Assembly (NCBI GenBank): GCA_964461785.1
Contig: CAYWWE010000002.1
Span: forward strand, 3,609 to 67,608
Direction: 5' to 3'
DNA: 64,000 nt
From: an uncultured Bacteroides sp.
Lineage (GTDB): Bacteria; Bacteroidota; Bacteroidia; Bacteroidales; Muribaculaceae
The position numbers and the translations under genes are program-made. Under the pieces are notes generated by a model. That model was not told the DNA's origin and did no database searches. It saw only the letters and a program-made list of their open reading frames with translations. Shown here in pieces: positions 51,031-55,879 of the stretch; the first letter of the stretch is position 1, and each line of letters opens with the position of its first letter.

Positions 51031-51999
51031 TCACACTGTGACGACTATTTTGCCTATCTCTCCACGCTGCTCTGCCAGTTCGTGGGCGGCGGCTATATCT
51101 TCAAGCCTGAATGTGCGGGCAATGATGGGATGTATCCGTGCGCGGTCGATCAGATCCATCATGTCGGTGATTTCTTTCTGTGTCGGGGAATTGCTGTAGA
51201 ATCCGGTGAGATATACCCCGGAAGGAATTTCCTTGATCGGATCAAAATCTTTCATGCCGAATATGCCTCCGAGCAGGCCGGTGTGACATACGATTCCGTG
51301 CAACGATGTAAGCCGCAGCGACTCAAGCAGGGTAGCGGCACCGATCAGTTCGAGCACTTTAGTTGCACCATAGGGGTATTTATCGAGAAATTGCTGTCTT
51401 AGATCGGGCCCTTCGATCATGGCGTCGTCTGCTCCATATTGTCTCAGAAGACTGCACTTTTGTGTGCTGCGGGTGGTGGAAACGACTGTGGCTCCGATTG
51501 CCTTGGCAAGCTGCAGGGCTGCCAACCCCACCGTGGAGGTGCCACCACGGATAAGCAGAAGATCGCCTGACTTCAGCTGCAACGATCCTACGAGCGAGCC
51601 GTAGGCCGTGTAAAAGGTCTCCGGAATAGCGGCAAGTTCCTGCCAGTCAAGACTACTGTTGACAACAAACAGATGGCTTGCCGGCAAAAGGGCGTATTCC
51701 GAGTAGCTTCCGTCGAAACTGCGGCCCATTCCACCCATCAGGGCAATCACGCGATCGCCCTTCCTGAATCGGGTGTCGGAGGGATCTTCAACCACACCTA
51801 CACATTCGATGCCGGGTATGATCGGTTTCCGGATATATGGCCGGGCTATCTCAAACTGACGGAGAAGTATCTCGGAATGATTGATGCCGAAGGCTTTGAC
51901 TTTGACAAGCACCCATCCTGGGCGCACCGTAGGGATGGCTCTTTCGGTTAATTTCATTTCTCCGGCCTTGCAAGGCTCGGTGAGTACAACAGCTTTCAT
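51031..51999 (-). CDS. Zn-independent MDR-family (quinone) oxidoreductase
   Basis: VLVKVKAFGINHSE, PGIECVG, DGSYSEY, RGGTSTVG, GKIVV; no catalytic Zn Cys/His set; ATG overlaps the rSAM stop. Confidence 0.88.
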   Translation of the reverse strand: MKAVVLTEPCKAGEMKLTERAIPTVRPGWVLVKVKAFGINHSEILLRQFEIARPYIRKPIIPGIECVGVVEDPSDTRFRKGDRVIALMGGMGRSFDGSYSEYALLPASHLFVVNSSLDWQELAAIPETFYTAYGSLVGSLQLKSGDLLLIRGGTSTVGLAALQLAKAIGATVVSTTRSTQKCSLLRQYGADDAMIEGPDLRQQFLDKYPYGATKVLELIGAATLLESLRLTSLHGIVCHTGLLGGIFGMKDFDPIKEIPSGVYLTGFYSNSPTQKEITDMMDLIDRARIHPIIARTFRLEDIAAAHELAEQRGEIGKIVVTV

Positions 52000-53015
52000 A
52001 CTTCCTTCCAGCATTGGGGGTCAGGTGCATAAAACGAGCGGTGGTAGCCGTATGCCACAGCCGGGCATCCTCGGCAGAAGCGGAGCAATTCGCATCGCGA
52101 GCATTTCTCAAATTTCTCATGCTGACGATAGGCCTCCATTTCTTTTCCGGTCCAGAGATCATGAATTGGAGTGTGGAAAAGATTGCCTACTACGCTATCA
52201 AAGCGGCGGCAGGCCATGACACTGCCGTCGGGCTGAATGGTGAAATGGCAGTCGCCGCAGTGACATCCGTCGTAGATAGCCTCAGGATCGCTGTTGGCCG
52301 GAATCTGAAACAGCCCTTTCTCATAAAGATACAGGGTCCACAGATGATCCTTGAGGTTGAAGACGGTCGACGAATCCTTATGCTGCTCAAACTTTTTCCA
52401 GATGCGGTCGAGGAAGTCGCGGTATTCAAGCGGCGAGATATGAGTAGATTTTTCTTCGGAGGTGGGGCAATAACGTCCGAAGGCAAACAGGTCGACCCCT
52501 TTGTCAACTACCAGGTCAATAATGTCGGGGATCTCGCTGATATTTGTACCGGAGACGGTTGTCATTACCGCAACCCGTATACCGGCTTTTTTCAGGACGT
52601 CAATCTTGTCGATGGTAGTGTCGAACGATCCGGGCTTTCGAATGGAGTCGTGGGTGTCTCTCATTCCGTCGAGCGACAACTGATATTTGGCGCATCCCAT
52701 GTCTTTCAGGCGGATGCACACCTCATGGGTGAGATGAAAAGGATTGCCAAGGATCGTGAATGGAATATCACGCTCCTTAAGGAGTGAGAGAATCTCCCAA
52801 AAGTGTCGGTGAAGGATGGGATCGCCACCTGTTATATAAAAATATGGTAGGCGGTGTATCTTCCGGCACATCTCCTCACATTGAGCGACAACCTCCTTCG
52901 CCCTTTCGAGTGATATCTCGATCAGGTGTGGATGTCCTTCCGAGAAAATGTAGCAGTGTTCGCAGCGCTGATCGCAGCTATCGGTTATGTGCCACTGGAA
53001 AGCAAAATATTCCAT
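51996..53015 (-). CDS. Radical SAM/SPASM peptide maturase (ACGX-system type)
   Basis: QWHITDSCDQRCEHCY (CxxxCxxC), ITGGDP, SLDG; SPASM Cys array GCHCGDC, MAC, CSRCELLRFCRGC, DPQC. Confidence 0.92.
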   Translation of the reverse strand: MEYFAFQWHITDSCDQRCEHCYIFSEGHPHLIEISLERAKEVVAQCEEMCRKIHRLPYFYITGGDPILHRHFWEILSLLKERDIPFTILGNPFHLTHEVCIRLKDMGCAKYQLSLDGMRDTHDSIRKPGSFDTTIDKIDVLKKAGIRVAVMTTVSGTNISEIPDIIDLVVDKGVDLFAFGRYCPTSEEKSTHISPLEYRDFLDRIWKKFEQHKDSSTVFNLKDHLWTLYLYEKGLFQIPANSDPEAIYDGCHCGDCHFTIQPDGSVMACRRFDSVVGNLFHTPIHDLWTGKEMEAYRQHEKFEKCSRCELLRFCRGCPAVAYGYHRSFYAPDPQCWKEV

Positions 53016-53141: not shown

Positions 53142-53315
53142 TTATTTTTCTCCTGCACCGCAAGCCGAGCCACATGCTGCGGGCTTGGGTTCGGGTTTTT
53201 CCTCGCCGGCTCCGCAGGCAGAGCCGCATGCGCCTGAGGGTGTTTCGGTTGCGGCCTGAGCACAGAGATATGCCTGTGCGGTGTGCTTTACGGCACTATT
53301 GGCAATACGCTTCAT
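53142..53315 (-). CDS. ACGX-repeat RiPP precursor peptide, 57 aa (not in ORF track)
   Basis: Hand translation MKRIANSAVKHTAQAYLCAQAATETPSGACGSACGAGEEKPEPKPAACGSACGAGEK*; directly upstream of and co-oriented with the rSAM/SPASM gene. Confidence 0.88.
   Translation of the reverse strand: MKRIANSAVKHTAQAYLCAQAATETPSGACGSACGAGEEKPEPKPAACGSACGAGEK
53148..53231 (-). repeat. Two 30-nt direct repeats encoding ACGSACGAGE (53202-53231 and 53148-53177)
   Basis: gcatgcggctctgcctgcggagccggcgag vs gcatgtggctcggcttgcggtgcaggagaa; 7 differences, all at third codon positions. Confidence 0.95.
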
Positions 53316-53360
53316 AATCGGATGGGGTTGATTAGAGGGTTAAACATATTTTTTCAATGA

Positions 53361-53368
53361 CAAAATTA
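53361..53368 (-). promoter_or_regulatory. -7 promoter element of peptide-rSAM-oxidoreductase operon
   Basis: TAATTTTG on minus strand, 45 nt upstream of the peptide ATG. Confidence 0.65.
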
Positions 53369-53394
53369 ATCTGTTATGGTCTATTGATCAAGAG

Positions 53395-53430
53395 CTTACG
53401 AAAGGGTAACCAAGTAATATATTTGTTACT
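53395..53430. promoter_or_regulatory. Candidate HxlR-family operator
   Basis: CTTAC-N6-GTAAC, AGTAA-N8-TTACT and GTAAC-N14-GTTAC inverted half-sites between divergent promoters. Confidence 0.45.
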
Positions 53431-53518
53431 AATAATGATTTTCAGATGTTTGCATGAGATAAAATTTTTATAAAAAATTATTATTTGCCAGAGGGTTGCA
53501 ACTGTCTGCAAGATGGAG

Positions 53519-53526
53519 TAACTTTG
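53519..53526 (+). promoter_or_regulatory. -7 promoter element of hxlR-like gene
   Basis: TAACTTTG, 19 nt before ATG 53546. Confidence 0.7.
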
Positions 53527-53545
53527 CGGATAAACAGCAAAGAGA

Positions 53546-53917
53546 ATGAGAAGAAAAGAGCAGCTTAATTCCATCATAGAGATCTGTCCGGTCAGAAATG
53601 TTGTGGCCCGTTTCGGCAATAAATGGGCTTTGCTTGTCATACTGGTCCTGAGCGAGAATGACCCGATCCGGTTCAATGATCTGGGACGTAAGATACCTGA
53701 CATTTCATCGCGGGTGCTATCGTCGACACTGAGGACTCTTGAAGCCGACGGGCTTGTCAGCCGCGAATACTTTCAGGAGGTTCCTCCGAGAGTGGAATAT
53801 TCGCTTACCGACACAGGGCGATCACTGGTGCCGATCATTGTGCAACTCACTGAGTGGGCTCAAAAAAACATGAAGACCATTATCGAGCATCGACGTCTCA
53901 GCACTCCTGAAAGCTGA
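53546..53917 (+). CDS. HxlR/DUF24 winged-helix transcriptional regulator
   Basis: CPV...GNKW, RFNDL, ISSRVLSSTLRTLEADGLV, VPPRVEYSLT. Confidence 0.95.
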   Translation: MRRKEQLNSIIEICPVRNVVARFGNKWALLVILVLSENDPIRFNDLGRKIPDISSRVLSSTLRTLEADGLVSREYFQEVPPRVEYSLTDTGRSLVPIIVQLTEWAQKNMKTIIEHRRLSTPES

Positions 53918-53988
53918 GTGGAGACCACGGCATGAGCAGCGAACAAGTCGACGGACGCTATTGTTTCAACAGAAAATCTAAAGAATAA

Positions 53989-55233
53989 ATGGCATCCGAT
54001 TCATCTGTAAAGCCGGCACAGACCACTACCGCCGACTTATCTTCTGCTCCCAAACATTATGGCCTCTTTGTGGTGTTCATTGCCATAATAGGCGCATTCT
54101 CCTCGCTCGTCAACGATATGTACCTCCCGACAATTCCTTCGATGATGAAGGAGTTTCACACTACGCCTTCGATGACCCAGATGGGCATATCGATGGCTAT
54201 GATCGGAATGGGTCTCGGCTCGGTATTATGGGGCTCGGCAAGCGACCACTACGGGCGCAAACCGATTTTGATCGGGTCGCTGATAATATTTGTGATAGCA
54301 ACTGCGCTCTCACTGTTTTCGCGCAATATAACTTTCTTCATAATCTGCCGTCTGTTTCAGGGGCTTGGAGCCGGTGGAGCAATGGTGCTATCCACCTCTA
54401 TCCCGGCCGATGTCTATATGGGGCGTCAACTTGCCAAACTCATGGCTATTGTAGGTGCCATCAACGGTGTGGCACCGGCTCTCGGGCCTGTTGTCGGTGG
54501 TTTCATGGCCGATTGGGTCGGATGGCATGGAATATTTGTTGTTCTCCTCGTGGTAGGGGTTGTAATGACTTTCTGGACCACACATTATACTGAGACGCTC
54601 CCTCCGGCGCGCCGTCTTAAGGCACAGAGTCTCAAGGGCTACGTCAAAGCCTACCGATCGCTGTTTGCCAACGGTCGCTTCATGCTCTATGTCACGATCA
54701 AAGCTGTTGCGATTGGTCTGCTGTATGCCTATATATCGTCTGCGCCCTTTATCATACAGACACACTATGGATTCAGCGCCATGACTTTCGGACTGATTTT
54801 CGGAGGAAACGCACTTGCCATGAGCATAGGTTCATCGCTCGCACTGAAATTTAAGGTGATGAAGCAGGCTATGGTCGTCGGTTGTTTCGGTATGTTTGTG
54901 TTCGCCGTAGCAGAAGCGTTCGTGATGTGGCATGAAACACCGTTTATCTATTATGAACTATGCGCCATACCGATGCTTCTGTTCTCAGGCATGATCTTCT
55001 CAAGTGCCAACACACTTTCGATGGAGGTAGGACGTGATGAGGCCGGTACAGCTTCGGCTATCCTCAGTGTGGTGAAGTATGCTTTCGCTGCCGTTGTGTC
55101 GCCTCTCGTAGGTCTCGGAAATATCTTCCACTCCACGGCAATAGCATACGTTGCCGTGACCTCGGTAGCGGTAGTGCTCGCATGGCGCGCCATACGCCTC
55201 GCTCCTTTAGCCGATATGGAGAGAACTAAATAA
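53989..55233 (+). CDS. Bcr/CflA family MFS efflux transporter
   Basis: DMYLPTIP, SDHYGRKP, RLFQGLGAG, PALGPVVGG; about 12 TM. Confidence 0.92.
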   Translation: MASDSSVKPAQTTTADLSSAPKHYGLFVVFIAIIGAFSSLVNDMYLPTIPSMMKEFHTTPSMTQMGISMAMIGMGLGSVLWGSASDHYGRKPILIGSLIIFVIATALSLFSRNITFFIICRLFQGLGAGGAMVLSTSIPADVYMGRQLAKLMAIVGAINGVAPALGPVVGGFMADWVGWHGIFVVLLVVGVVMTFWTTHYTETLPPARRLKAQSLKGYVKAYRSLFANGRFMLYVTIKAVAIGLLYAYISSAPFIIQTHYGFSAMTFGLIFGGNALAMSIGSSLALKFKVMKQAMVVGCFGMFVFAVAEAFVMWHETPFIYYELCAIPMLLFSGMIFSSANTLSMEVGRDEAGTASAILSVVKYAFAAVVSPLVGLGNIFHSTAIAYVAVTSVAVVLAWRAIRLAPLADMERTK

Positions 55234-55318: not shown

Positions 55319-55879
55319 ATGGAAAAGACAGAAAAGGATAAGATGCTCGCCGGCGAGATCTATGATGCGGGTTATGACCCTCAACTTATAGAGGAACGCC
55401 TGAGGTGTAAGGAATTGTGTCGCGACTACAACGATCTGCGCCCAAGGGATACACCAGCCCGTGAGAATCTTCTCTCGCGGATTCTCGGAAGCATAGGTGG
55501 CGCGATACTGATTGAGCAGCCATTCTACTGCGATTACGGCTATAATGTCTCCGTCGGTCAAAACTTCTACGCAAATTATAATCTGGTGATCCTCGATGAG
55601 GCTCCTGTCACATTCGGCGACAATGTCTTTATCGCTCCAAACTGTGGCTTCTACACAGCCGGACATCCTCTTGACCCGTCCGAGCGCAACAAAGGTCTCG
55701 AATATGCACGCCCCATTTCTGTGGGCAACAATGTTTGGATCGGTGCAAACGTGTGTGTACTGCCGGGAGTAACGATAGGGGATAACTGTGTCATCGGTGC
55801 CGGAAGCGTGGTGGTGAGGGATATTCCTGCAAATTCGGTAGCGGTGGGTAACCCGTGCAGGGTGGTGAAATCTATTTGA
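55319..55879 (+). CDS. Maltose/galactoside O-acetyltransferase family
   Basis: KMLAGEIY, PFYCDYGYN, hexapeptide repeats, AVGNPC; TAATTTTG at 55283-55290. Confidence 0.93.
   Translation: MEKTEKDKMLAGEIYDAGYDPQLIEERLRCKELCRDYNDLRPRDTPARENLLSRILGSIGGAILIEQPFYCDYGYNVSVGQNFYANYNLVILDEAPVTFGDNVFIAPNCGFYTAGHPLDPSERNKGLEYARPISVGNNVWIGANVCVLPGVTIGDNCVIGAGSVVVRDIPANSVAVGNPCRVVKSI

Follow-up and report, generated by a model that had tools for sequence, protein, structure and literature searches.

A one-cysteine HxlR-family regulator and a candidate operator block accompany the ACGX peptide operon in Muribaculaceae

DUF24 thiol-switch regulators with adjacent reductase genes are known from several bacteria. 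The redox-sensing MarR/DUF24 protein HypR (YybR) from Bacillus subtilis (structures 4A5M/4A5N) activates the nitroreductase gene hypO, of which it protects positions -53 to -95, and a HypR box downstream of hypR's own promoter is thought to be repressive; the thiolate of its Cys14 lies at the N-terminal end of helix alpha-1, its pKa being 6.36 (PMC3351151). HxlR of B. subtilis, the formaldehyde-activated activator of hxlAB (7BZD/7BZG), also works through an N-terminal cysteine, the modification of which raises both DNA binding and activation, and it senses formaldehyde through a Cys11-CH2-Lys13 bridge (PMC7835342). Several characterised DUF24 regulators of adjacent reductases (YodB, CatR, QsrR), in contrast, are repressors (PMC3351151).

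The ACGX system is known as a catalogue entry (NCBIfam/TIGRFAMs) that consists of a precursor peptide (TIGR04341) and its radical SAM maturase (TIGR04340). In our literature search we came across no paper that treats ACGX or TIGR04340, and none that treats HxlR in connection with ribosomally synthesized and modified peptides (RiPPs). Related precedents concern modified cysteines: bufferins, copper-chelating 5-thiooxazole RiPPs made by MNIO enzymes, protect against copper (PMC11626156), and the same source mentions a single earlier report of 5-thiooxazole in a natural product, the work of a radical SAM enzyme, and cites SbtM as the one radical SAM enzyme known to form thiooxazoles.

We analyzed a 64,000-nucleotide stretch of DNA (hereafter, the window) from a member of the Muribaculaceae, a family that is dominant and poorly studied in the rodent gut. 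In this stretch an ACGX operon faces an HxlR-family gene across a short intergenic spacer (Table 1). Our analysis indicates that this HxlR is probably dedicated to regulating the operon divergent to it, which encodes the ACGX peptide, its radical SAM/SPASM maturase, and an NAD(P)H reductase.

Table 1. Features of the locus and of the intergenic spacer; conservation refers to 56 aligned spacers, and H1 to H4 and TGATT are the elements of the conserved block.
Feature	Position	Strand	Evidence or conservation
Quinone oxidoreductase (PIG3/zeta-crystallin-like MDR), last operon gene	51031..52014	-	TIGR02824 1e-54 (below its cut-off), ADH_N, ADH_zinc_N
Radical SAM/SPASM maturase, ACGX system	51996..53015	-	TIGR04340 573.8 bits vs cut-off 400
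57-aa ACGX-repeat precursor peptide, two ACGSACGAGE cores	53142..53315	-	TIGR04341 29.8 bits vs cut-off 28
Spacer, 230 nt, 31% G+C	53316-53545		Between peptide gene and HxlR
-7 box of peptide operon promoter, TAATTTTG on minus strand	53361..53368	-	CAAAnnTA kept in 55/56 spacers
-33 element of peptide promoter, CTTG on minus strand	53389..53392	-	CAAG 41, CAAT 8, CAAC 7 of 56 spacers
Conserved operator-like block, H1/H2/H3/H4 + TGATT	53395..53440	.	Highest information content in spacer
H1, CTTAC in window	53395-53399		(G/C)TTA(C/T) in 35/56 spacers
H2, GTAAC in window	53406-53410		Not conserved in ACGX-linked spacers, degenerate in most; window and class-2 type only
H3, GTAAT in window (rare variant)	53414-53418		GTAAC in 47/56 spacers
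H4, GTTAC in window	53425-53429		TCGC in 34, TTAC in 11 of 56 spacers
TGATT	53436-53440		Further conserved position of block
Middle TAnnTTTG element	53418-53425	+	Window-specific
-33 element of HxlR promoter, GTTG here, TTTG in consensus	53495..53498	+	Conservation 8-9-8 on TTG (53496-53498)
-7 box of HxlR promoter, TAACTTTG	53519..53526	+	TAnnTTTG in at least 49/56 spacers
Winged-helix regulator of the HxlR/DUF24 family, 123 aa, with C14 as its sole Cys	53546..53917	+	PF01638 101.3 bits
Bcr/CflA MFS efflux transporter	53989..55233	+	TIGR00710 232 bits; starts 72 nt downstream of HxlR
Maltose-type O-acetyltransferase	55319-55879	+	

The assignment of the operon to the ACGX system is straightforward, as the peptide and maturase models both score above their cut-offs and the two genes are adjacent on the same strand. 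The start of the quinone oxidoreductase gene overlaps the stop of the maturase gene (51996-52014 region, minus strand). The regulator matches PF01638 over residues 24-110, far above the cut-off of 20.8 bits, and is one of four HxlR-family genes in the genome, one of which is broken.

An earlier sequence-only reading of the window had proposed that the regulator controls the peptide operon. Comparison with other genomes gives this link strong support. A scan with the maturase over one genome per species returned 343 relatives, and we inspected the best 80 loci (75-86% identity). Among these best 80 of 343, a divergent HxlR orthologue (71-91% identity) is present in 71 of the 71 assessable loci, mostly across a spacer of 222-230 nt; the nine loci in which HxlR was not seen are cut by a contig end, which removes the upstream region. 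We clustered the open reading frames in the 3-kb flanks of the 71 modules and found no family common to more than eight loci; as the flanking genes vary in this way, the four-gene module behaves as a self-contained unit. The arrangement of quinone oxidoreductase, maturase, and peptide genes opposite an HxlR gene recurs in a distant Bacteroidales family (genome G101; maturase 65%, HxlR 44% identity). Another distant family (G379) has the peptide and maturase with no adjacent HxlR, which means that the radical SAM system does not universally depend on this regulator. Among 400 other genomes of the Bacteroidales, three carried TIGR04340 (one with HxlR, one without, and one cut by a contig end), and no further genome scored above the cut-off among 400 sampled across the phylum.

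The spacer is AT-rich, as the sequence-only reading had described it, and we aligned 56 spacers (median identity to the window, 53%) to obtain a phylogenetic footprint. Two divergent promoters and one conserved block emerged. The Bacteroidetes sigma-A consensus has a -7 box TAnnTTTG and a -33 element TTTG about 19-21 nt apart. In both spacer promoters the -7 and -33 elements are 20 nt apart with their defining bases conserved across the 56 spacers, and both fit the sigma-A pattern as judged from their sequence; the transcription start site (TSS) of the peptide operon would then lie near 53355 on the minus strand and that of hxlR near 53532 on the plus strand. These promoters account for the TAnnTTTG elements, which the sequence-only reading had described as back-to-back. 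Three such elements are indeed present, on the minus strand at the peptide promoter and on the plus strand at the other two positions. However, the conserved ones are the outer two, a pair about 150 nt apart that corresponds to the -7 boxes of the divergent promoters.

The block lies where an operator had been suspected, just upstream of the peptide promoter, and its conservation is the highest in the spacer, at 1.08 bits per column versus 0.57 for positions 53441-53500 (56 spacers). It spans about -40 to -85 relative to the predicted peptide TSS, and its consensus reads (G)GTTAC-N14-GTAAC(C)-TTTTT-ATCGC-TTTT-NN-TGATT. Just 2 nt separate H1 from the peptide -33 element. The block overlaps neither core promoter, being upstream of the peptide -33 element and 90-135 nt upstream of the predicted hxlR TSS, and across the 56 spacers we found no conserved dyad that overlaps the -33/-7 boxes of the peptide promoter or its 5'UTR.

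The inverted half-sites read from the window alone fared less evenly. All three do exist: CTTAC (53395-53399)-N6-GTAAC (53406-53410), AGTAA (53413-53417)-N8-TTACT (53426-53430), and GTAAC (53406-53410)-N14-GTTAC (53425-53429). By number, however, they are unremarkable, since the spacer contains 8 perfect 5-nt inverted repeats versus a mean of 5.2 in 2000 dinucleotide shuffles (P = 0.20); as this count is at the shuffle level, we do not use it as evidence by itself. The clustering of four GTAA/TTAC words inside 36 nt of the spacer is above chance under dinucleotide shuffling (P = 0.0015). Conservation upholds the region and the word family but only part of the pairing, as two of the three pairs need the non-conserved GTAAC at 53406-53410. 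CTTAC-N6-GTAAC joins the conserved H1 to the non-conserved H2; GTAAC-N14-GTTAC joins H2 to H4, a conserved position that is present here in a minority variant; and AGTAA-N8-TTACT joins H3 to that same minority H4. The best-conserved dyad, GTTAC-N14-GTAAC (53395-53418), is not among the three pairs.

A change of target gene is informative here. In the same genus and family, HxlR orthologues with 63-73% identity are divergent to a Cupin_2 gene instead of the ACGX operon. In the three cupin-linked spacers that we inspected, the length, both promoters, and the block are all as in the ACGX-linked ones. An HMM of the block matched every ACGX-linked spacer read and 10 of 11 spacers linked to this cupin type (cupinA), and the recognition helix, SSRVLSsTLR, is identical in the cupin-linked and ACGX-linked regulators. 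Paralogues that are 54-59% identical and face a second cupin type (class 2) have the helix SPKVLTxTLK and a related but different half-site array (e.g., GTTAC-N6-GTAAG-N3-CTTAC-N6-GTAAC at locus L030); no class-2 spacer was matched by the block HMM. We also observe that H1-N6-H2 of the window resembles this second type of array.

The regulator class was present in 50 of 401 sampled Muribaculaceae genomes. We read 29 of its loci, which comprised 16 ACGX-linked loci, 8 cupin-linked loci, 1 convergent radical SAM-nitroreductase pair, and 4 that were other or decayed. In a quick HxlR tree, which is mostly unresolved, the regulators that face a cupin gene group as a single clade, inside the ACGX-linked set or beside it. 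The regulator-operator-promoter cassette appears to stay constant while the gene that it faces is swapped, and this comparison provides the best computational evidence that HxlR would act on the divergent promoter through the block. The exchange of a cupin gene and a RiPP operon behind one regulator-operator-promoter cassette is a clean example of modular regulatory capture, and the cassette itself is a compact candidate for an inducible promoter part in Bacteroidota.

The proposed sensor is the regulator's cysteine. C14, followed by P15 in an N-terminal CP motif, is the only cysteine of the window protein, as the sequence-only reading had noted; it is invariant in 79 of the 79 relatives examined and the sole cysteine in 60 of them. 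A CP cysteine is a family-wide feature of HxlR proteins, however, so its presence alone is no proof of redox sensing. The best relative in the PDB is HypR (4A5M, 2.9e-23), followed by HxlR (7BZE, 1e-20), with YodB (5.2e-12) and QsrR (6.5e-9) giving much weaker sequence matches than HypR; C14 aligns to HypR Cys14 and HxlR Cys11. In an AF2 model (25 orthologues), the winged-helix core with alpha3-alpha4 and the beta-wing has a pLDDT of about 90, and C14 caps the helix formed by residues 15-22, although residues 1-14 are of low confidence.

The switches described for the two closest relatives do not carry over. For the two-cysteine switch of HypR, the motif RRICPSI aligns to GRKIPDI here, with Ile in place of Cys49, and 60 of the 79 relatives have no second cysteine; the one activation mechanism that has been solved is thus inapplicable as such. 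The formaldehyde chemistry of HxlR uses a C-x-K motif, which is missing, as the window protein reads C14-P15-V16, with V16 almost unchanged across the orthologues. Membership in RrpA or RrpB (NF047367/NF047364), MarR-type redox regulators of Campylobacter, was also rejected, at 69.5 and 71.1 bits versus cut-offs of 185 and 175. For a one-cysteine member, S-alkylation, S-thiolation, or a symmetric disulphide is possible.

Taken together, these observations suggest a mechanism in which HxlR dimers, probably two side by side, would bind the GTWAC-type block at 53395-53440, which adjoins the -33 element of the peptide promoter on the upstream side. Cys14, capping helix alpha-1 as in HypR, would be the sensor of a thiol-reactive signal, which may be an oxidant, a quinone or other electrophile, or possibly a soft metal. 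With no second cysteine available, the switch would be an S-alkylation, an S-thiolation, or a symmetric C14-C14' event. Its output, a cytoplasmically made, cysteine-derived modified peptide together with a quinone/nitro reductase, would constitute a stress-protection module.

The sign of this regulation is a closer call. We slightly favor activation over derepression, at about an even chance or a shade above, because the block is located at about -40 to -85 and leaves both core promoters clear. The alternative is that HxlR is a repressor of the YodB/QsrR type that occupies the block and comes off upon alkylation or oxidation of C14, so that the peptide operon is derepressed; we regard this as possible but the less likely course, keeping it in view because the gap between H1 and the -33 element is just 2 nt, so that a dimer bound there might impede RNA polymerase. 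The single-cysteine layout here resembles the dependence of QsrR on one essential N-terminal cysteine. Repression is also what YodB, CatR, and QsrR, as DUF24 regulators of adjacent reductases, exert (PMC3351151). However, the block is clear of the -33/-7 boxes and of the predicted TSS and reaches about 50 nt further upstream, which is the topology of HypR, and the matches to QsrR and YodB are far weaker than those to HypR and HxlR. The sequence-only reading had cited YodB and QsrR beside HypR; the block topology matches that of the activators HypR and HxlR rather than that of these two repressors, and the closest solved relative is HypR.

Two further explanations would detach the block from the peptide operon's regulation by HxlR. 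The block could be a UP-like promoter element or the site of some other, global factor, with HxlR co-inherited for a different reason, e.g., autoregulation only. In favor of this, the majority form of H4, ATCGC, together with the T-rich run does not make a clean palindrome. ATCGC is also not a GTWAC half-site, H2 is degenerate in most spacers, and the 14-nt gap of the conserved dyad is unusual, so that the dimer-binding geometry proposed above is tentative. A global factor, on the other hand, should have more sites, whereas neither the block HMM nor GTWAC-N6-GTWAC patterns found a second site in the 2.6-Mb genome; moreover, the regulator keeps the block in front of two unrelated targets, and the block changes with the recognition helix. 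We therefore consider a different factor improbable. It is more improbable still that the main targets of HxlR in this genome are its own gene and the Bcr/CflA pump, with the RiPP operon adjacent only by accident. Efflux pumps are often under MarR-type regulators, and the 72-nt gap has no terminator-like site and, by eye, no TAnnTTTG, so that the pump is probably co-transcribed with hxlR. Yet the pump is a genome-specific neighbour, absent downstream of HxlR in all other loci and so rejected as a conserved target, compared with a peptide operon beside HxlR in every assessable ACGX locus. The distances point the same way, with the block about 55 nt from the peptide promoter versus about 90-135 nt from the hxlR TSS.

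If HxlR is a dedicated regulator of the peptide operon, the contents of that operon bear on what is being regulated. Among the best 80 of the 343 relatives, the gene after the maturase encodes a quinone oxidoreductase in 67 loci and a Nitroreductase-family protein in 12, the remaining locus ending with the contig. Judged by gene content, this is a non-orthologous displacement, with a reductase being obligatory in the operon. The precursor's leader and cores hardly vary among about 75 orthologues, which share the leader KHTAQAYLC, cores of the form ACGSACGAG(D/E), and the linker EKPEPKP; most loci have two repeats, and a few have three. On inspection, the precursor shows no hydrophobic N-terminus of the signal type. 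In the 3-kb flanks of the 71 modules we found no conserved exporter, leader peptidase/protease, or immunity gene, as would be expected of a bacteriocin-type RiPP. Among named families, the thio(seleno)oxazole maturase SbtM comes closest to this enzyme after TIGR04340 (1.2e-55).

As genomic context, the reductase, the missing export and immunity genes, and the SbtM-like maturase fit the idea, already put forward in the sequence-only reading, that the modified peptide might be a thiol/metal/electrophile buffer and not a bacteriocin, and they suggest that the ACGX peptide may be a stress-induced protective product rather than an antibiotic. A fuller version of this idea, which we offer tentatively and think may well prove wrong, is that the system makes a cell-retained protective RiPP or peptide-derived redox factor, switched on by a one-cysteine, HypR-like activator together with its maturase and NAD(P)H reductase. 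The inducers would be thiol-reactive oxidants, quinones, or soft metals of the gut, and modified cysteine units (e.g., thiooxazole or thioether) would act as scavengers of the stressor or cycle together with the reductase. If true, ACGX would be to radical SAM enzymes what the bufferins are to MNIO enzymes, equipped with a redox sensor of its own and widespread in Muribaculaceae.

In the papers searched, we did not find a description of a one-cysteine, HypR-like regulator that, with a candidate operator block, appears fixed to a RiPP operon in dozens of species, nor of an apparently obligatory reductase or of the putative cassette swap between cupin and RiPP targets. For an orphan RiPP this amounts to a testable hypothesis, as it points to inducers, a DNA fragment, and a partner enzyme.

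Compared with HypR, the system shares Cys14 at the alpha-1 N-cap, an operator region (here a candidate) upstream of the -35/-33 element (-53 to -95 for HypR, about -40 to -85 here), and a regulated unit (here the proposed one) that has an NAD(P)H flavin/quinone-type reductase. It differs in three respects: HypR needs Cys49 for a C14-C49' disulphide, where Ile is present here; the HypR box is GTATCAAAATTGATAC (7-2-7), unlike the GTWAC half-sites with 6- and 14-nt gaps; and HypR acts on one gene at another place in the genome, as opposed to a divergent RiPP operon. With B. subtilis HxlR the regulator shares the Pfam family and a similar length, but Cys11 and Lys13 of that protein are replaced by C14-P15-V16, with no Lys. 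YodB and CatR (B. subtilis) and QsrR (S. aureus) are quinone-/diamide-sensing repressors that use an N-terminal cysteine as the electrophile sensor and, as proposed here, control reductase genes. Their targets are azoreductase, nitroreductase, dioxygenase, and quinone-reductase genes and include no RiPP, and their boxes overlap promoters, whereas the block here is upstream of the -33 element. The peptide and maturase match the two halves of the ACGX catalogue entry. Bufferins, finally, have a Sec signal and MNIO/DUF2063 enzymes as their makers, unlike the ACGX precursor with its SPASM radical SAM enzyme and its N-terminus that does not resemble a signal; both are nevertheless Cys-rich ribosomal peptides that lack a dedicated exporter, protease, or immunity gene, and bufferins provide a precedent for a protective "buffer".

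Among the 80 ACGX loci compared (the best 80 of 343 rSAM relatives, one genome per species), a nitroreductase-family protein (PF00881) replaces the quinone oxidoreductase after the rSAM gene in 12, and no locus lacking a reductase was found among these 80, one of which ends at the contig end. Such non-orthologous displacement of one reductase by another suggests that the reductase is a functional part of the ACGX system. In the precursors themselves, we observed three ACGSACGAG(D/E)-EKPEPKP units instead of two in the peptide genes of four loci (L072, L092, L106 and L108), so that core repeats are gained or lost as whole units.

Features discussed here (L, loci read from relatives; G, genomes, G000 being that of the window; C, contigs)
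Feature	Location
Nitroreductase-type ACGX loci	L049:5012-5587, L050, L058, L108, L110-L113, L115-L118
Cupin-facing HxlR loci	L027, L028, L029, L144-L147, L149-L151, L153
Second HxlR paralogue/cupin cassette beside ACGX module	L090:3783-4679, L104:3766-4644, L139:2387-3265
Distant ACGX-type precursor	L124:7359-7583 (G379)
Short HxlR-family match outside the window	G000:C7:285-473
hxlR stop to MFS pump start, window	53918-53988

At L124, which encodes a distant 74-aa ACGX-type precursor with SCGS/SCGT repeats, a membrane protein lies upstream in the expected place of HxlR, so the rSAM system of at least one family does without this regulator. At L143 (G866:C73), the rSAM (60% identical) and its companion nitroreductase lie downstream of a class-1 HxlR (73%) and converge on it, where a divergent upstream position would be expected; L143 thus resembles an ACGX locus that has been rearranged or belongs to a second type. 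Muribaculaceae-like ACGX modules are also found in several MAG records (L068, L078, L082, L084, L091 and others) that bear the names "uncultured Staphylococcus sp.", "Alistipes sp." or "Prevotella sp."; these organism labels look unreliable.

In the window, neither a terminator-like site nor, by eye, a TAnnTTTG box was found between hxlR and the downstream MFS pump gene, and, judging from this sequence, the two are therefore probably co-transcribed in this genome; the arrangement was seen in none of the relatives. A TGA stop breaks the genome's fourth HxlR-family match, which is also short; it probably represents a pseudogene, or else a gene fragment where a contig ends.

In other Muribaculaceae species, the same HxlR class faces a 149-aa Cupin_2 gene rather than the ACGX operon, in a cassette that keeps the spacer length, promoters and operator block (the candidate HxlR site) of the ACGX-linked version; rSAM was absent from the cupin-version genomes searched for it (G007, G008, G024). 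A second HxlR paralogue (54-60% identity), with a cupin of a second type as its partner gene, was also observed directly adjoining the HxlR-ACGX module, placing two regulator-target cassettes in tandem at three loci.
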